Numbered from the stretch's first letter, positions 6,287 through 23,135 are shown. The stretch: 64,000 bases of DNA from an uncultured Desulfobacter sp. (GCA_963665095.1 OY762069.1:6176001-6240000), one strand, 5' to 3'. The notes: generated by a model from the sequence alone, not told the origin. Made by a program: numbers and translations.

Positions 6287-6682
6287 ATCACGGTGAGAAT
6301 TGAAATTATCCCCGCAATATATCTACTATTGAATGCTGTTTTGAAATAGGCCTGGGGGGAGGATAAATAGGCAAAAGGCTCGCTTTCTCAGATGTCCACC
6401 AGAGGCAGGAGTATATATATAATTGATTCTTGAGAGTTGGGCCGAACCACAAGATATGGTATCTGAATTCAAATTGGGAACCTGGGCTTTAATACCATTA
6501 TGTTGCGAGCTGGCCTAACATGTTAAATTTAAAGGCGATTTTAGCTACCCATATTGCAAATCAATATTGCATTAAAATTCAACATGTTAACCCTCCTTTT
6601 TAAAATTTTAAAAATCAGTGGCAACATAATTTTTTGTTTTACTACATACCCCTCCAAAGATAGCAAAAGCTGCTTCAGTGGT

Positions 6683-7702
6683 TCATAAACTGTCAAGCCA
6701 GGCAAGGATTTCAGCACTATTTCCCCAGTCGATTAACTCATCAATTTTTTTGTCATGAGTTATTTTCGATTGCATGTATTCCATGAGCGTATTTTGGACT
6801 TCCCGTTTTTTTGACAGATCCAGCTGCAGATAGGTCATTGTTGATTCAATACTTTGATGACCAAGACGATTTTTGATATCCGATACCGGAGCACCTGAAC
6901 TGACCATGTTGACTGCGCACGAATGCCTGAAGCAGTGAGCCGGGCTCAGTCCTTTCAGCCTTTTTTCCGGCAAGGCCAAGGTCAAATATTTCCTGCAAAT
7001 CTTATTTATTCCGTGCCGAGTCATTTCCCGCTTCCGTTGATTGATAAACAGCCTATGGGCAAATAAAGGGATGGGATCTACCCTGTGATTGCTGATATAG
7101 TCCGAGATCAACGAGGCTGTTCTGGAGCATAGATTAATCAACCGGTATCGGTTTCCCTTTCCCAGGACCGCAATGGTTTCGTTTTCAGGATCAAAATAAT
7201 CAAATTCCAATGTGGCAATTTCACTGGCCCGGGCACCGGAGTCATAAAGCAGATGGAGAATGGTAAAGTCCCTCATGCCTTCTTTCTTTTTCAGATCTAC
7301 GGCACTAAAGACTTTCATGATTTCTTCGGGATATAAAAACCCCATCACCTTTTTTTGAGCTCTTTTCTGAGGGATGTTCAGGAGGCTCTCGGCAATTCTT
7401 TTTTTATCCGGATGCATGAAGCGGATCATCTTAGCCAAAGACTTGATCACAGCCAGGCGTTGGTTTCGAGTCTGCACGCTATTTTTTCGATTTTTTTCCA
7501 GATGCTGGAGAAAGGCAAGCACTGCATCCACCGTTAAGTGTTCTATTTTCAATGACTTGATTTTTATTGAGTGATGATTCGCCAAAAAATGCAGGAATAA
7601 AGACAGGCTCTGCCGGTAAGCTTGAACACTTTGTTTGCTCGTCCCTTTTATCGAGGGCAAGTATTCATAAAAATACTGGTGCAGGCAACTTGTCAATCTC
7701 AT
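6683..7702 (-). CDS. Tyrosine recombinase, RitC-like (third of trio)
   Basis: N-terminal SAM-like domain (YRQSLSLFL, RNQRLAVIKS); SGARASE, LGKGNRYR, HCFRHS, LGHQSIESTMTY. Confidence 0.92.
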   Translation of the reverse strand: MRLTSCLHQYFYEYLPSIKGTSKQSVQAYRQSLSLFLHFLANHHSIKIKSLKIEHLTVDAVLAFLQHLEKNRKNSVQTRNQRLAVIKSLAKMIRFMHPDKKRIAESLLNIPQKRAQKKVMGFLYPEEIMKVFSAVDLKKKEGMRDFTILHLLYDSGARASEIATLEFDYFDPENETIAVLGKGNRYRLINLCSRTASLISDYISNHRVDPIPLFAHRLFINQRKREMTRHGINKICRKYLTLALPEKRLKGLSPAHCFRHSCAVNMVSSGAPVSDIKNRLGHQSIESTMTYLQLDLSKKREVQNTLMEYMQSKITHDKKIDELIDWGNSAEILAWLDSL

Positions 7703-8673
7703 GCACCCTCGCTTTTTGATCTCGAGAAATCAAACAGTTGCCGACGGTGCTCAGCATCCAGTACCTTCAAATAATAGGTCGTGTATTTGTATTTGCTGTG
7801 CCCCATATAAGCCGCCAGTACAGGCAGGGCATTTTGGCAGGATTTTCCTCGCTGTTTTATCCTTTTCAGCGTGTTCACAGCAAACGAATGCCGCAGGGAA
7901 TGATGAGAAGGCTGGCTGAAGTTTGTAGTACCGATTATTTTCCTGGAGTGATCAAGATTAATATCTGTGAGTGCCTGTTTAAATCTGCGATTTATAAACA
8001 TACGTACTAGTTTTTTCCCTTTCACCTTTACCAGCAAAAAAGGGCTGTCATCCTCATCAGGGAATAACCGGCGAACTTTTAGCAGGTTGTTGATTTCATG
8101 GGCTACGGCTTTGGGTATAGGGATCAATCGATCTTTTCTAAATTTTGTCTTTTCAATATAGATTGTTCTTTCTTCGGGCCTGTAATGGGTTTTCAATAAA
8201 TTAATGGTCTCCGAGGTTCTAAGTCCGCACCGGGCCATCAACAAAAAGGCAATATAAGCGCTGAAATCTGACACATAGAATCTTTGACTTGTCCGCAGCG
8301 ACTTGACTGCAGCCTTGAGAAAACGGTCAGTTTCTTCCGGAGAAAATATAAAAGGAATAACGAGATTTTCCTGTAGCTCAGTGATTTCCTGTAACGGATT
8401 TTCCAGGATCACATCCTTGCGTATAAGATAATTGAAAAAGATCTTGAGCATTCTAAAAATCGTATTTATGGACCGGGGTTCAAGATCAAGTTCTGCTCTG
8501 AACCGGATAAAAAACAGCGGATCAAAGGATGCCCAAGTCACTTGTTTTTCAGATACATATCGATCAAGCACCCTAAGACCGTATATCATTGAGGTGTTTG
8601 AGTACCCCAGTTGAAAACGATATTCGAGGAAATCCTCCATTGGTTCAGCCAAAAAACTTTTAAAACGTTTCAT
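7699..8673 (-). CDS. Tyrosine recombinase, RitB-like (second of trio)
   Basis: CGLRTSE, KTKFRKDRLIP, HSLRHSFAVNTL, LPVLAAYMGH...TTYYL. Stop overlaps the next start (ATGA); SD GGGAGG. Confidence 0.92.
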   Translation of the reverse strand: MKRFKSFLAEPMEDFLEYRFQLGYSNTSMIYGLRVLDRYVSEKQVTWASFDPLFFIRFRAELDLEPRSINTIFRMLKIFFNYLIRKDVILENPLQEITELQENLVIPFIFSPEETDRFLKAAVKSLRTSQRFYVSDFSAYIAFLLMARCGLRTSETINLLKTHYRPEERTIYIEKTKFRKDRLIPIPKAVAHEINNLLKVRRLFPDEDDSPFLLVKVKGKKLVRMFINRRFKQALTDINLDHSRKIIGTTNFSQPSHHSLRHSFAVNTLKRIKQRGKSCQNALPVLAAYMGHSKYKYTTYYLKVLDAEHRRQLFDFSRSKSEGA

Positions 8674-9547
8674 CAAGAATAACCTCCCGCATCAGGCCGA
8701 TATGAATACTCAGATACTTTTTGGTCGAATCGAGGCTTTTATGTCCCATCATTTCTTTGATTTCATAGATGGACATACCGGATTCCAACATATTCTGGGC
8801 AAACGAATGCCGCAGCCAGTATGTACTTGATCCAAGATTCTTTTTCGTCATGCATTCTTTTATATCTCGGGGGATATCGCTCCTGTTGGCCGGTTTATAA
8901 GGTGGTGTCAACTGTAAAAATAGAACTCGGGATTGGGTTTCAGGTCTCCCGCCCACAATATAGGCAGTGATCGCTTTGATGATGTTGTCGGGAAGGGGAA
9001 GATGGGCAGGATTGCAATTTTTTCTTGAACGGATAAAAATTTCTTTCTGTCTGAATGAGATGTCATCCAGGGTTAGCAACCTGATTTCTTTGGGTCTCAA
9101 TCCCAGGTAATACGCCAGGTGTATGGCGGCATTCGTGCGAAGATCTTTTGCTGTTGATAGACCCAGACTGTCAAACAGTTTTTGAACTTCATGGGAGCGT
9201 AAAAATTTGAGTGGCTTTAGTTGTCCGAACTCCGGAGGGCTTACTATCAAAGGGGCGAGATCTTTTTTGATATATTGTTCCAGATAAAGATATCTCAAAA
9301 ACTGCCTGAGATATGACCGGTTCGATTTAGCGGTCCCTATGGAATAATTGGTATTGTACAGGGCTAAAAATTGATCAACCTTCTGGATGGATATCTCATT
9401 CAGGGGGACGCCTGATTTTTGCAGATAAATATCCAAACCTGTCAATATCCGCTGCATTCCTCTGACGCTTTGCTGACCACGAACTTGATGACTATAATAA
9501 TCCAGATACCGCTGACAGATTTCCGGCAATATATGATCAGGTGTCAT
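8660..9547 (-). CDS. Tyrosine recombinase, RitA-like (first of trio)
   Basis: LRQFLRYLY, LGLRPKE, YWLRHSFA, MGHKSLDSTKKYL; overlaps both neighbours. Confidence 0.9.
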   Translation of the reverse strand: MTPDHILPEICQRYLDYYSHQVRGQQSVRGMQRILTGLDIYLQKSGVPLNEISIQKVDQFLALYNTNYSIGTAKSNRSYLRQFLRYLYLEQYIKKDLAPLIVSPPEFGQLKPLKFLRSHEVQKLFDSLGLSTAKDLRTNAAIHLAYYLGLRPKEIRLLTLDDISFRQKEIFIRSRKNCNPAHLPLPDNIIKAITAYIVGGRPETQSRVLFLQLTPPYKPANRSDIPRDIKECMTKKNLGSSTYWLRHSFAQNMLESGMSIYEIKEMMGHKSLDSTKKYLSIHIGLMREVILDETF

Positions 9548-9845
9548 GACCGGATTCCCTTGCGGTTAAAATCGTCTGCAGATATTTTACGCTGCTGACA
9601 AAATCGGTGTTGCGGCAGATCATTACCATATCGATGGTGTTAAAATTTCTTTCGCATCGAAAGCACCGGCTCAAATTCGTTCTGGGATTAACCGCGGTCT
9701 GGAACTCGTTGCACAAGGGGCACAGAAAACGGAAAACCCCTTCACTGATTTTGGCCGGGATACCCAGCTGTGCTTCGATCAGTACATGAATGGGTATTGA
9801 ATTTCGTAAGTTATAAAGTTCCTTTGAAGAAAATAGTTTGCCCAT
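9537..9845 (-). CDS. Small CHC2-like (primase-type) zinc-finger protein
   Basis: FLCPLCNE...RCFRCERNFNTIDMVM...DFVSSVKYL resembles the DnaG zinc-binding domain; SD GAGG. Confidence 0.75.
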   Translation of the reverse strand: MGKLFSSKELYNLRNSIPIHVLIEAQLGIPAKISEGVFRFLCPLCNEFQTAVNPRTNLSRCFRCERNFNTIDMVMICRNTDFVSSVKYLQTILTARESGHDT

Positions 9846-10350
9846 GTTGACACCTCTTCTTTTTGGTCAGTTCTTTCAGAATATCTGGCGTCAACTTTAC
9901 CGTTTCCTGGTCCGTGGCATCAATAATCTCTTGTAACGCATTTTTATTAAGAAGGGTGTCAAATCCAATAAAGACAAGGGTCTTGGTCGATATTAAATCT
10001 TGTAACGGTATTTGAATTAAATCCGTCGAAGAGCCTTTACCAGTAATGCTTTTGCCGGTTTTCATCTCTTGTAACGCATCTTCAGTTAAGAATGGTCTTT
10101 TGCGGGGCTTTTTTCGCTTCCAGTAACCTGGATTGGTTTGACGCCACTCCTGAACACGGGCAACATTCTCAGGACCTGAGAAATAATCCTGATTTTTGGG
10201 TTGATTCAGCCATTTTTGCTGGCTGTGTTTTTTACTGGCAATTTTACATTCTGGTTTGTCGCAAAATCTTTGCCGCTTCAAATGCCGGGGATCTGGTTTG
10301 AATAAATTTTGGCAGTTTTTACACCTGCGCTGTCGGATTTGTTTTTTCAT
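9811..10350 (-). CDS. Hypothetical zinc-finger protein (CxxC...CxxxxC, PGYW motif, repeated LQ[ED])
   Basis: Strong SD AAGGAGG; RRCKNCQNLFKPDPR...FCDKPECK...WRQTNPGYWKR; overlaps the CHC2 gene. Confidence 0.7.
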   Translation of the reverse strand: MKKQIRQRRCKNCQNLFKPDPRHLKRQRFCDKPECKIASKKHSQQKWLNQPKNQDYFSGPENVARVQEWRQTNPGYWKRKKPRKRPFLTEDALQEMKTGKSITGKGSSTDLIQIPLQDLISTKTLVFIGFDTLLNKNALQEIIDATDQETVKLTPDILKELTKKKRCQHGQTIFFKGTL

Positions 10351-10902
10351 AGACCTGATACCTCCTTAGGTCTATGATCGGACGAATGATGGCGGGGTAG
10401 TATTTTTTCAAAATATGGCGGGGTCTTGCAGGGTCCGGCTGGATCGGGCGGGGTAAAACACGCAACAAAAAAAACTCGCTACATAAATACCATAAGTGCT
10501 TAGTCAATTTTATCCCGGATTAATAAGATTTTTATCCAAGGTCGAATGGAGTAATTTTTTATCAATCTAATTTGACACTTAGTCTTTTTATCCTTATTTT
10601 CATTTTGATAATGTTTTTAGATTAGTGAATATCGCTAAGATTACGAGTCTAAACCAATTACTTGATGCAATGTTGATAACAGGAAGCCTATTTTTACTAT
10701 CTTTAATTAAACCAGCATTTAATTTAGTGACACGAAGAGTTAAACCCTTCCTGATGGAGGCAATGCCTATGGTTATCAATATATCGAATGAATTCGTTGT
10801 TAATCTCACAGCTTTTTGTATCAATGTCATCGCAACAGGGCGGACTCCACTAATCTAAGAACATTATTCGTTTAGTTCGTGGTAAGGAGCACGCACTCTG
10901 GA

Positions 10903-11145
10903 ATGAGTATAAATATAAAGCTTGTTGAATTCCGTAAAAAAATTAGAAAGAATCAAAAGAAAATTATAGATTCAATTATTGAAAATCACACAAAAAATAT
11001 TTGTATCTTTTGCGGAGAATCTGAGAACCTGACTAAAGAACATGTGATTCCCCAATGGGTTTATGACCATTGCACTAAGCGGGCTTTTGTTACTACAATA
11101 AATAACAAGTCGCAAACTTATCACATGGCAACGCTTCCATGTTGA
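10903..11145 (+). pseudogene. N-terminal fragment of an HNH-like endonuclease
   Basis: CIFCGESENLTKEHVIPQW...TLPC, then a stop where IS1634-derived sequence begins. Confidence 0.6.
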
Positions 11146-12063
11146 TTAGCCGGCAATCGGCTCAGGAAACGAATCCCGTTTCTCTGTGCAGCTATAAGGT
11201 TATCTGTGGTTACAAAGGCTGAATCTGCGACATAAATGGATGCTCCCGGCTTGAATCCATGTTCAGCCATGTGTGATGAAATATGAGATAACAGCTCATT
11301 GTTCAGGGTCTTGTCTGAAGCATTCCCGTTCTGGGTTTTTCCTATGATCGGAATATTTCGGTCTACACACAACATGGACACCATGAATTGCTTCAAATCC
11401 GGTCGTTTATCCTTGCTGTAACCGTAGGTGATATTCAATGGCGTATCGGGGTAATCTTCGTAAGCACCAAAAACGGAAACAGAGGTAGTATCAAAGTGGT
11501 GATGGCGCGTATCCAGTTTAAAACAACCGATGGCATTTTGGGAAATCTGGGAAAATATCTTTTGAGTTCCCGTCTCAAAAAGCTTGTCCAATACCCGCCC
11601 GAGATTTGTGTCGTTAAATTTATCAGGACTAATGGGTTTGCCAAAAAGCAACTCGGTATCCATCTCGTCGAAAGCCTCTTCGAGTCGGTACAAAGGAGTC
11701 CTTCCGGAGACAGTATCCATAATCATCCCAAGGACTGCATCGCCTGGCGATAGTTCCATTTTGCTATCTGTCATGGTATTGATCGTTTCAACCAGGTTGA
11801 TACGTTTAGCGTACTCTTTGAAAATCGGAAGAAATTTTACATCTGTGAAATTCCATTCCTCGGTACCTGGAATGTTCATATTTTGCCCCCCTCGGTTTTG
11901 AGTTTTTTTGGGGAGCACCATAGACTAAATATTTGTGTTTGCATAGACAAACATTTTTTATTTATTTGATTTTTATGAAATGTTTGAAAACCAAGTTAAC
12001 CTACTTATTTTAAATAATTTTAAATTGTAGGCGCTTTATCACTTGAAGGTGAGGAAAATACGA
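11145..12063 (-). mobile_element. Truncated IS1634-family element (N-terminal half of transposase, ORF 11121-11921)
   Basis: HFDTTSVSVFG, GYSKDKRPDLKQF, GNASDK, VADSA, FLSRLP; the third catalytic E region is absent. Candidate left end near 12048-12063. Confidence 0.8.
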
Positions 12064-19341: not shown

Positions 19342-19752
19342 ATGGCTGAATATACCAAACCACTGCCGGTAATGACCGAGTTAAGCAGGCAGTTTTATGA
19401 TGGATGCAAAAACAATCAACTGCTGTACCAGAAATGCGAAGATTGCGGGGAGGTGATTTTTTTTCCAAAGCTGCTCTGCTCCAACTGCATGGGCCGCAAC
19501 CTGAGCTGGCAAAAGTCCTCGGGCAGGGGCAAAATTTTCTCATTCACGGTCACCTATGATGCGGCCCCGCCGGAATTCATGCCCTATGTACCCTTTGTGC
19601 TTGCCGTGGTCACCCTGGAAGAAGGGTTCAATATCCTGACCAATATTGAGGATTGTGAATTTGATGATATCTGCTGCGATATGCCGGTACAGGTGAAGTT
19701 TGACCCGGTCACCCCGGAAGTGACCCTGCCCAAATTTATTCCCGCCGGATAA
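19342..19752 (+). CDS. DUF35 zinc-ribbon/OB-fold protein
   Basis: QKCEDCG...PKLLCSNC, SGRGKIFSFTV, VTLEEG, LPKF. Confidence 0.9.
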   Translation: MAEYTKPLPVMTELSRQFYDGCKNNQLLYQKCEDCGEVIFFPKLLCSNCMGRNLSWQKSSGRGKIFSFTVTYDAAPPEFMPYVPFVLAVVTLEEGFNILTNIEDCEFDDICCDMPVQVKFDPVTPEVTLPKFIPAG

Positions 19753-19927
19753 GCAGTTCAGGCTTACGTTCAAAATCAACACTTCCAAAGATGCACAGGA
19801 TTTTGGCTGCAAGCCTTATAAAAAAATACGGGAAAAACAGTAATGCCGCATATCTGTTTTTCCCCATGTACCTTAAGAATCCGCATCTGAAAAATGTATC
19901 ACCATTTTTATATAAGGAGGAGGCTCT

Positions 19928-20190
19928 ATGAGTTCAGCCGCATAAAAAACCGAAGACTAAAGCCTGATTTTTGAACCCGTCACCATTGGCAATGTGGGAA
20001 TTAAAAATTAGGGTTGCCATAGCACCAATGAACATGAATTACACTGGTCCGGACCGCCAGGTATGAGCAGTATGTGGATGAATATGCCCGCAGCCTCATT
20101 CTTCCCATTAAAAAAAGGGTGTGGCAGGCCCTTTCGGAAATCGGCACAGAGCCAAGTATGCCCATGGATATAGGACCGGAAGACGTTTGA
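19928..20190 (+). pseudogene. Collapsed NADH:flavin oxidoreductase (Old Yellow Enzyme family) remnant
   Basis: Strong SD (AAGGAGGAGG) and ATG; LIFEPVTIGNVGIKN / frameshift / RVAIAPMNMNYTGPD is an OYE N-terminus, joined to a short C-terminal-like segment ending in TGA 20190. Confidence 0.65.
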
Positions 20191-20283
20191 ATCATCCCTG
20201 TCGCCGACGTGAAACGGCGAAATCTTTATAACCAGTTTAAGAAATATAAACCGATCAAATAAAACTGTAAGGGAGATTTTAAT

Positions 20284-21216
20284 ATGAAGATTTATGATAC
20301 CCATGTTCATCTGTTCAGTGAAGAGAGCATTCCTGAGGCCTATAAAATGGGAATGGCCAGAACCATGCGACTGGTATTGAAAAACAAGCACAACATGGAC
20401 ATGTCCCTGGAAGAGGCAAGGAACAACCTGATTCCCGGCATGTATGATCCTGACGGCCAGAAATTTCTGGCCCAGATGGACAGTGCCGGCATTGATAAAG
20501 CCGTTATATTCGGATCGGATTTTGGCCGGGAACTTGGGGACCCGCCGCTGCATCCCTTTGAGATCAACCATCATTATGCCCGGCTTGCCAAAAGCCATCC
20601 GGACCGATTTCTTGCGCTTTGCGCCCTTGATCCCAGGCGGCCCAAAGCCTTGGCCCATGCGGAACAATGCATTGAAGAGCTGGGAATGGGCGGGTTCAAG
20701 CTCCATACGGCCGCAGGCTTTTATCCAACCGATGAAATCATGTACCCCCTTTATGAAAAATGCGCCCAATGGAATGTCCCCCTGGTGTTTCATACCGGTG
20801 CCCAGCCGGCAGCACCAGTGCACTTAGATACCCAGCGCTCTTTATTTTTAGCTGAAGCTGCCACCCGGTTTCCGGACACCAAATTCATCATGGCCCATGT
20901 GGCAATGGATCTGTGGGAGGAGGCGGTGATGTACGGCAAACTGATCCCCAACCTCTATTTTGATCTTTCCTACCACCAGTTTAATTTTCATACCTGGGGA
21001 ACAAAAAAATTTTATAATTGGCTCAGATTCCTGATTGATGAATGCGGTGCATCAAGGCTGATGTGGGCCACGGATGCACCTTTGCCCTGCACCATGATGT
21101 CTCCGGAAGAGTGGGTCAAGGTGTTTACCAAGCCCGATTCCGACATCACCTTTACCCAAGAGGAGATTGAAATGATCATGTCGGGCACAGCATCTTCGGT
21201 ATTTCAACTGGATTGA
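20284..21216 (+). CDS. Amidohydrolase_2-family metalloenzyme
   Basis: DTHVH, GFKLH, PLVFHTG, FIMAH, LMWATDAP. Confidence 0.88.
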   Translation: MKIYDTHVHLFSEESIPEAYKMGMARTMRLVLKNKHNMDMSLEEARNNLIPGMYDPDGQKFLAQMDSAGIDKAVIFGSDFGRELGDPPLHPFEINHHYARLAKSHPDRFLALCALDPRRPKALAHAEQCIEELGMGGFKLHTAAGFYPTDEIMYPLYEKCAQWNVPLVFHTGAQPAAPVHLDTQRSLFLAEAATRFPDTKFIMAHVAMDLWEEAVMYGKLIPNLYFDLSYHQFNFHTWGTKKFYNWLRFLIDECGASRLMWATDAPLPCTMMSPEEWVKVFTKPDSDITFTQEEIEMIMSGTASSVFQLD

Positions 21217-21254
21217 TCCGGATTTTCACCCTTTGTAAAGGAGGTAGTATTCCC

Positions 21255-23135
21255 ATGGCAGATACAGATTTGATACGAGATATAAATGATATCCTGGAAA
21301 TTGAAAAAACACCTGTTTCCCGGCGTCTGGACGTTAAAAGCACCCTGGCAGCCCTTGAAAAGGGGGCAGGCGTCAACCCAGGGGCCCCGGCACTGCATTT
21401 TCTTCAAACAGGAGAGGATTACAACGCCCCTGTAACCATTTCCTATAAAGACTTTCTGGCCAATGTCTACCGGACAGCCAATATGCTCCATGACCTGGGC
21501 GTGGGCCCCAATGATGTGGTAAGCTACATGCTGCCCAATCTTCCCCAGACCCATTACGTCCTTTGGGGGGCGGAAGCTGCAGGAATCGTCAACCCCATAA
21601 ACCCCATGCTGGAACCTAAAGCCATCACAGATATTTGCACGGCAGCCGGAACCAAAGTGCTTGTGGCGTTAGGACCCACCCCGGGCACCGACATCTGGGA
21701 AAAGGTCCAAGCCGTGAAAAAGGATCTGCCGGCCCTGGAACATGTGATTTGCGTGTCACAACAGCCGGTTGAGGGAAAAGGTGTATTGGCATTCAACGAT
21801 GAGATCAAAAAATACAGCGCAAACGGGCTTGCCTTTACCCGGGACATCGCACCCCACGACATTGCCTCCATTTACCACACCGGCGGTACCACAGGCAGGC
21901 CCAAGCTTGCAAAGCGAACCCACTATAATGAAATTATAATGGCCTGGATTATTAAAAAAATGGTTGGGTTTACCAAGGACTCCACCCTGCTTTGCGGTTT
22001 GCCTTTGTTCCATTGCAACGGCACCATTGTCACAGGGCTTGCCCCGTTTACAGTGGGGGCAGCCGTGGTACTGCTGTCTCCTGCCGGATACCGGAATCCT
22101 TTGGTTATCAAACATTTTTATAAAATTGTTGAAGCCTTTGGTGCCAATTTCTTTTCTGCGGTTCCCACGGTGTTGTCCATGCTTCTGGATACACCGGTAA
22201 AAAATACGGATATATCCTCACTCCAGTACGCCATTTGCGGGGCTGCCCCCTTAAGCAGGGAGCTTTTCAAGCGGTTTGAGGCCCACACCGGCATAAAACT
22301 GCTTGAAGGATACGGATTAACCGAAGGCGGAGTGGCGTCTGCCCTGAATCCCAAGGATGGAGAAAGAAAGGTCGGCAGTATTGGCATCCGCATGCCCTAC
22401 CAGGATGTAAAGCTTATGGCCACCGATGAGAAAGGAAACTTTCTTGGCCCGGCCAAAGCCGGTCAAATCGGCGTCATTGCCGTAAAAGGCCCCAATATTT
22501 TTAAAGGATATGTGGAAGATATTCATAACAAGGGCATCTGGTTTCCCGACGGGTATTATAATACCGGGGACCTTGGCAGAATGGATGAAGACGGATATTT
22601 ATGGCTCACCGGAAGAAAAAAGGAGCTGATCATCAGAGGGGGCCACAATATTGATCCGGCAACCATTGAAGAGGTGTTGTACAACATGCCGGAAATACAA
22701 ACCGCAGCAGCTGTGCCATGGCCGGATAAACATGCAGGAGAGGTACCTGTGGCCTATGTTCAGCTGTCAAAGGATGCCACCCTTAATGAAGCACAGATCC
22801 TTGAGTATGCCAAAACCCATATTGGTGAAAGAGCAGCCATACCCAAAAAGATCATAATCATTGATGAAATACCCCTTACCACCGTGGGCAAAATTTTTAA
22901 GCCCGCCCTGCGAAGGGATGCAATTAAACAAGCGGTTGAACAGGAACTTGACCCCATAAAAACAGATTTTAAAGATATCCGGGTTGCGGTCAAAGAAGAT
23001 AAAAAATATGGAGAACTTGTAACAATAACGGTTAGGGCCCAAAATGAAAACAATTTTGAACAGGCAAAAAACCAGATCAATAAAACACTGAGCCAGTATA
23101 CTGTGGCCATGGAAGTTATAATGCCAGTCAAATGA
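21255..23135 (+). CDS. Acyl-CoA synthetase (AMP-forming)
   Basis: YHTGGTTGRPK, LPLFHCNG, EGYGLTE, YNTGDLG, IRGGHNIDP, TTVGKIFK; SD GGAGG before ATG 21255. Confidence 0.9.
   Translation: MADTDLIRDINDILEIEKTPVSRRLDVKSTLAALEKGAGVNPGAPALHFLQTGEDYNAPVTISYKDFLANVYRTANMLHDLGVGPNDVVSYMLPNLPQTHYVLWGAEAAGIVNPINPMLEPKAITDICTAAGTKVLVALGPTPGTDIWEKVQAVKKDLPALEHVICVSQQPVEGKGVLAFNDEIKKYSANGLAFTRDIAPHDIASIYHTGGTTGRPKLAKRTHYNEIIMAWIIKKMVGFTKDSTLLCGLPLFHCNGTIVTGLAPFTVGAAVVLLSPAGYRNPLVIKHFYKIVEAFGANFFSAVPTVLSMLLDTPVKNTDISSLQYAICGAAPLSRELFKRFEAHTGIKLLEGYGLTEGGVASALNPKDGERKVGSIGIRMPYQDVKLMATDEKGNFLGPAKAGQIGVIAVKGPNIFKGYVEDIHNKGIWFPDGYYNTGDLGRMDEDGYLWLTGRKKELIIRGGHNIDPATIEEVLYNMPEIQTAAAVPWPDKHAGEVPVAYVQLSKDATLNEAQILEYAKTHIGERAAIPKKIIIIDEIPLTTVGKIFKPALRRDAIKQAVEQELDPIKTDFKDIRVAVKEDKKYGELVTITVRAQNENNFEQAKNQINKTLSQYTVAMEVIMPVK

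Follow-up and report, generated by a model that had tools for sequence, protein, structure and literature searches.

The described elements closest to the one analyzed here are the RITs, which carry three genes between terminal inverted repeats of 28-34 bp (PMC3414803, PMC10214605) and whose RitA has two core-binding domains (PMC8138268). RIT movement is described as untested in the literature consulted (PMC3414803, PMC8138268, PMC5737581, PMC10214605, PMC2864759, PMC5385486). Likewise, Table 1 of a 2023 paper (PMC10214605) gives the movement of RITs, their target specificity and the formation of empty sites as untested. For SEs, a circular intermediate is described, as are imperfect inverted ends separated by a spacer of 6 bp (PMC10214605, PMC5385486).

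The window, the whole stretch of 64,000 nucleotides analyzed here from an uncultured Desulfobacter sp. (GCA_963665095.1 OY762069.1:6176001-6240000), holds a related 4-kb element of five genes, which belongs to sulfate-reducing bacteria. To judge from sequence comparison, it is real and recently active, and represents a new RIT variant of five genes, whose 6-bp core and target are defined from genomes and whose two accessory genes have a presumed role. The first-pass annotation had described five intact, overlapping open reading frames in one direction; all five indeed lie on the minus strand, and each is preceded by a purine run resembling a ribosome-binding site. The GC content of the element is 42%, against 48% for the window. 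Its features are as follows.

6492..6497, no strand: ritC-end 6-bp core, ATACCA, which reads TGGTAT along the genes
6498..6509, no strand: ritC-end terminal arm of 12 bp, where a recombinase is predicted to bind, CAACATAA
6516..6528, minus strand: IHF-like box 1, at most two mismatches in 33/39 distinct ends
6577..6589, plus strand: IHF-like box 2, inverted to box 1, found in 37/39 ends
6620..6629, plus strand: inner inverted arm motif GGCAACATAA, with TTATGT in 39/39 ends
6683..7702, minus strand: ritC, tyrosine recombinase of 339 aa (PF00589)
7699..8676, minus strand: ritB, tyrosine recombinase of 325 aa
8660..9547, minus strand: ritA, tyrosine recombinase of 295 aa with a single core-binding domain
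9537..9845, minus strand: orf2, 102 aa, DnaG-type zinc ribbon with four cysteines (PF01807, E 1.5e-6, over the cut-off)
9811..10350, minus strand: orf1, 179 aa, with a basic CxxC..CxxxxC N-terminal domain
10461..10470, no strand: second, directly repeated arm motif at the ritA end
10475..10486, no strand: terminal 12-bp arm at the ritA end
10487..10492, no strand: 6-bp core at the ritA end, ATACCA
10493..10499, no strand: half-site of the target, lying in the flank; on the minus strand, in the direction of the core, it reads GCAnTnA

As in RITs, three adjacent, overlapping tyrosine recombinase genes stand in fixed A-B-C order, and alignments and the RitC tree identify their products as orthologues of RitA, RitB and RitC that form a clade of their own. 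Each has its best match in the protein of the same position in all four canonical trios compared (E 6e-55 between RitC and the third gene), and all three score best on XerD/XerC models, below the cut-off in every case. The catalytic motif with its tyrosine is kept in the three enzymes: its R, K and R are invariant in 48 RitA, 44 RitB and 38 RitC distinct proteins, and the later H and Y are absent or fall in a gap in three rows at most. In RitA, Y243 stands for the first His of HxxR (giving YxxR), and so it does in 48/48 RitA proteins. By alignment, which runs to the last residue of three canonical RitC proteins, RitC has the C-terminal extension seen in RITs, presumably a helix. In the RitC tree, the five-gene family (38 proteins) groups as a single clade (100/99), and the four canonical RitC, which have unreliable long branches, fall outside it. 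RitA has one core-binding domain rather than the two of RITs, and it aligns only from about residue 100-140 of three canonical RitA proteins of 400 aa. Deeper members of the five-gene clade have a RitA of about 390 aa, and the canonical trio of the window's genome (G000) itself likewise has a short one. Apart from the element's trio, a second, divergent one in that genome (2,749,123-2,755,519) has no clear terminal motifs and adjoins a DUF6431-like ORF, a DDE-like integrase and an AAA ATPase.

The element's ends were also placed correctly in the first-pass annotation, as homologues stop at the same bases, and the window copy has the inverted arms and the 8-bp repeat (AATACCAT at 6491-6498 and 10486-10493) described there. 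The annotation's division of the joined ends into 11-8-11, however, proved wrong. Among 42 distinct insertions (duplicates removed, both ends present), the inner 6 bp are identical at both ends in 37, while the 8-bp repeat occurs in only 12. Because the conserved repeat is the inner 6 bp, the joined ends read 12-6-12, and the crossover core is, on this comparison, 6 bp with 12-bp arms. A loxP-like core of 8 bp between 11-bp arms would suit the window copy and those 12 insertions; it is refuted by the 30 of the 42 that lack the repeat, and the empty alleles of one locus (L018) differ from the element arms at both outer positions, so that this parse retains practically no probability. The outer A and T of the 8-bp repeat are arm letters, and the 12-bp arms are complementary at 11 of 12 positions. 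The circle size of 3,995 bp given earlier was reproduced by computation and is unchanged by the re-parsing (the distance between the cores is 3,989 bp); the letters of the predicted junction also stand, and only their division into arms and core differs. Chance would produce such an end structure at about 6e-10 per position pair, or about 1e-4 over 500x500 positions.

The core sequence is fixed per lineage (TGGTAT in 21 insertions, GTCTAT in six, and six further cores in one or two insertions each), and its identity tracks the RitC tree. Five of the 42 insertions have unequal cores, and the pair TGGCAT/TACTAT, found in one of them, fits no simple heteroduplex outcome. The two ends are asymmetric. 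Only the ritA end has a double motif, two direct repeats 16-17 bp apart, while the ritC end combines a single arm, invariant in 21/21 aligned ends, with the IHF-like boxes and an inner arm. Box 1, at -31, was scored in 33/39 ends (shuffled mean 6.6, maximum 15) and box 2, at -92, in 37/39 (mean 15.7, maximum 27), a significance that the shuffle control overstates because the ends are related. The scoring used what we take to be the IHF consensus. The window's genome carries IHF/HU-family genes. The TTATGT of the inner motif lies at -131 to -134 in all 39 ends.

Outside the element, ritA-side flanks in the TGGTAT lineage share a short half-site. Of 26 such flanks, all have A at -1, and 25 each have T at -3 and A at -5; the consensus is weaker on the ritC side of the core. 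The window's genome has 74 sites with the minimal target pattern and 30 with a longer one. Since this half-site differs from the element arm, it suggests that a different recombinase subunit may read it. Two other features lie near the insertion: CCACAAGATATGGT in the flank (6446-6459), which is conserved in four other genomes and presumably resembles an NrdR box, and an HNH-like fragment (E 0.004, below the cut-off) that adjoins a truncated IS1634 transposase at 10879-11921.

A RitA query found 73 loci, mostly Desulfobacterota by record title; records assigned to other phyla come for the most part from short MAG contigs, which may have been binned wrongly. With the element DNA as query, 63 of 150 other genomes of the family gave a match, usually a partial one. 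RitC at E <= 1e-90 was found in only one of 300 other genomes sampled across the phylum, and the family is therefore patchy. The window's genome has one full copy and two end remnants about 2.5 Mb apart, which share 6 bp (ATAGAC), not 8 bp, beside the arm. In relatives, as in RITs, near-identical copies occur within one genome: three groups of such copies show 99.9-100% identity and a fourth 90-100%, and the flanks differ.

Forty-one empty sites were rebuilt and searched against the retrieved loci and the window's genome. One of them (L011) has a 99.8% match over 506 bp, with a single core, in the window's genome, where the core lies in frame inside an intact 377-aa gene. Three more have homologues of 78-81% with the same single core, two of these being repeat-flank matches rather than clear orthologues. 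At L018 the interrupted sequence is a repeat with 11 copies in its own genome; of the six fetched, the element interrupts one, and the other five run through with one GTCTAT each. Contigs of sample S19 with 0 differences from the window element continue past the core into other flanks, two of which, on the ritC side and only 19 and 21 letters long, match letter for letter two sites of the window's genome that have a single core, at positions 325,654 and 19,375. At the window locus, homologues of the ritC-side flank run into different DNA at the core in two genomes, and no empty form was found with the other flank (10494-11120), which matched none of 24 other genomes of the genus.

Two mappings of assembled contigs, which drop rare forms, contained neither the circle junction nor the empty-site joint that the first-pass annotation had predicted. 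A scan for joined ends yielded 39 genome and 85 metagenome loci, many of them trio ends of canonical type in other phyla. Two loci (L177, L184) hold head-to-tail arm-core-arm joins of the five-gene family with 6 bp between the arms, and are not whole circles. Of the annotation's possibly active, expanded RIT subtype much has held: RitA/B/C orthology, a separate clade, near-identical copies, empty alleles and alternative flanks indicate an element that is recently active, while its excision as a circle is only the likely route. In recombinase trios of other phyla (L126-L249, for example L161 and L175/L176), the end consists of a double motif followed by a spacer of 6 bp, a palindrome of 20 bp and then the spacer again in reverse complement. 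A contig of 3.3 kb among them carries this block at either end, with the small segment inverted, which is what assembling a circle or a tandem array would produce.

Derivatives without rit genes also occur. One is a non-autonomous mini-element of 328 bp with both ends (L122, 567-895), and another is a 2.7-kb non-autonomous derivative with both ends and an unrelated ORF (L123, 574-3248). An IS110-like element (482-aa ORF, family judged by eye) that begins with ATACC, at 1,703,275 onward in the window's genome and in L119 and L122, inserts at the same core motif, once at the end of a mini-RIT.

Sequence comparison thus documents the ends, the 6-bp core and its lineage-fixed sequence, a short target consensus, empty alleles, intact catalytic motifs and mobility. 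This is a RIT-family element whose near-identical copies in relatives sit at unrelated sites between 6-bp cores already present once in the empty target, and we consider it probable that it moves by conservative site-specific recombination. RitA, RitB and RitC would excise it as a 3,995-bp circle, which would re-integrate conservatively at a target holding one core. IHF would bend the ritC end, with its arm, two IHF-like boxes and inner arm, into a complex resembling attP; the element arms and the differing target half-site would be divided among the three recombinases; and strand exchange would require a matching 6-bp core. The two accessory proteins would form a DNA-binding control or assembly module independent of the strand-exchange chemistry.

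The absence of an excised donor from the two contig mappings, and the five unequal core pairs, would also be expected if the element were copied out as in SE elements and Tn554, with a strand-biased circle, a donor that is not emptied and 6 bp carried along as a footprint. Consistent with copying, orf2 and its winged-helix substitute resemble replication-protein domains, and SEs use a 6-bp spacer with an auxiliary protein (PMC10214605). However, the enzymes here are RitA/B/C, and the unequal cores that a donor-carried footprint would leave are not the rule. Because the cores are equal in 37 of 42 insertions and the empty targets already hold the core of the lineage, there is no free footprint, and we regard such copying as unlikely; a form with a homology-dependent integration step may apply. 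The equal cores could alternatively be a target-site duplication made by a staggered cut at a strict target, since a duplication would likewise leave a single core in the empty allele and a pair in the filled one, and filled and empty pairs alone cannot separate such a strict 6-bp duplication from a recombination core. Yet tyrosine recombinases are the only transposition enzymes encoded, the arms of joined ends in assemblies stay 6 bp apart, and unequal cores occur, which makes duplication very improbable. Conservative recombination at a 6-bp core is accordingly the reading we prefer.

The two genes upstream of ritA set the family apart. The four cysteines of orf1 are invariant in 47 rows, and it has no match in Pfam, NCBIfam, PHROG or PDB folds; orf2 overlaps the start of ritA. 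Two ORFs precede ritA in all 38 left ends that remain distinct at 97% identity (of 61 in total): slot 1 holds a cysteine-rich ORF of several types and slot 2 either a zinc ribbon (14) or a winged helix (24), a protein whose predicted model has weak matches, including to RepA-type initiators. These pairs are interleaved on the RitC tree and are swapped even between RitC proteins 99% identical. In the window element's lineage, ten pairwise comparisons gave dN/dS of 0.13-0.25 for orf1; for orf2 the nine values obtained were 0.04-0.16. The recombinases have similar ratios, which indicates purifying selection on the pair and selection on all five genes.

The same pair families occur elsewhere. Of 244 orf1 loci, the best 80 divide into 53 that run on into a winged helix and IstA, most also into IstB, 18 that run on into a zinc ribbon and a RIT, and nine that are short or other; an IS21 identity of the pair-carrying element was confirmed over the cut-off. 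The 79 orf2 loci comprise 34 at the head of a RIT, 35 at the head of a third element, and ten that are other or short. That third element encodes proteins of about 190 aa and 570 aa and an AAA_22 ATPase; its 570-aa protein has no family over the cut-off. It is multicopy at L353, L358 and L366, in the order cysteine-rich ORF, zinc ribbon, ~190-aa protein, ~570-aa protein and AAA_22 ATPase, and a degraded copy lies at about 95,000-97,400 of the window's genome. An IS21 element of 3.35 kb with two extra upstream ORFs (L410; 321,080-324,431 of the window's genome) has at least 13 near-identical whole or interrupted copies. On these occurrences, the accessory genes are an interchangeable module common to RIT, IS21 and AAA-ATPase elements, a point absent from the first-pass annotation. 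Given that the same families serve tyrosine and DDE chemistry, DNA binding that controls or assembles the reaction is the most likely role of the accessory proteins.

The prevalence of orf1 homologues before istAB and the swapping of pairs between nearly identical RitC proteins would also fit passengers, picked up from the left ends of IS21-like or other elements, with no role in RIT movement; three canonical plasmid RITs have no such pair annotated beside ritA. That both slots are kept in 38/38 distinct left ends despite differing occupants, that dN/dS within RIT copies is 0.04-0.25, and that orf2 overlaps ritA all speak against passengers, an explanation we rate as somewhat less likely still than copying out. 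A functional module is thus the reading retained here.

Core sites without an element were found that have one flank in common but not the other. In the window's genome, two copies of a 3.3-kb segment that carries an 808-aa ORF are 99.8% identical (19,369-22,690 and 877,480-880,799), one breakpoint falling exactly at a TGGTAT core and the other at GTCTAT, with no RIT beside it. Such shared-flank sites and the duplication may be scars of RIT-driven rearrangement; a genome-wide control in the window's genome gave no clear enrichment. It is a tentative and rather doubtful extension of these observations that the accessory pair is a general plug-in coupling the movement of tyrosine-recombinase, IS21 and AAA-ATPase elements to host replication, or controlling it, and that the recombinases of five-gene RITs reshuffle chromosomal cassettes between dispersed 6-bp core sites.

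A five-gene RIT or a shared accessory pair appears in no title or abstract of the literature searched; as most subscription journals and transposon databases lay outside that search, an earlier description is possible. In this family the ends are exact, a 6-bp core and a target consensus are at hand, filled and empty alleles occur naturally and the lineages differ in their cores, so that the need for three recombinases becomes directly testable. The accessory pair, in turn, is common to chemically unrelated transposons.

Compared with known systems, the element resembles RITs in its three overlapping tyrosine recombinases in A-B-C order, its multicopy habit and its TTATG-type terminal motifs. 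It differs in having two conserved accessory genes upstream of ritA, five ORFs and a size of about 4.0-4.8 kb in the family rather than three coding regions and about 3.5 kb, and a RitA without the first core-binding domain and with Tyr for the first His, in a clade of its own. Only 12 bp are inverted and the ends are asymmetric, unlike the symmetric double-motif repeats of canonical L324, and we therefore regard it as a variant rather than a canonical RIT. SE, GInt and Tn554 elements likewise combine several recombinase-fold genes with a small auxiliary gene. The enzyme set here is different, with no Tfp- or GinC-like non-catalytic subunit and with R and Y kept in all three recombinases; the accessory genes lie upstream and are of zinc-finger or winged-helix types, the target sites are many, and the cores are nearly always equal at both ends. 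This comparison is one of described features. IS21 elements share the two upstream ORFs inside the ends, an orf1 homologue (41% identity) and a winged-helix ORF, but have a DDE transposase IstA, an ATPase IstB and other ends. XerCD/dif-type sites have a 6-bp spacer between inverted arms, as the five-gene RIT does, whereas here the enzymes are encoded by the element and the targets are dispersed, with a half-site unlike the element arm.
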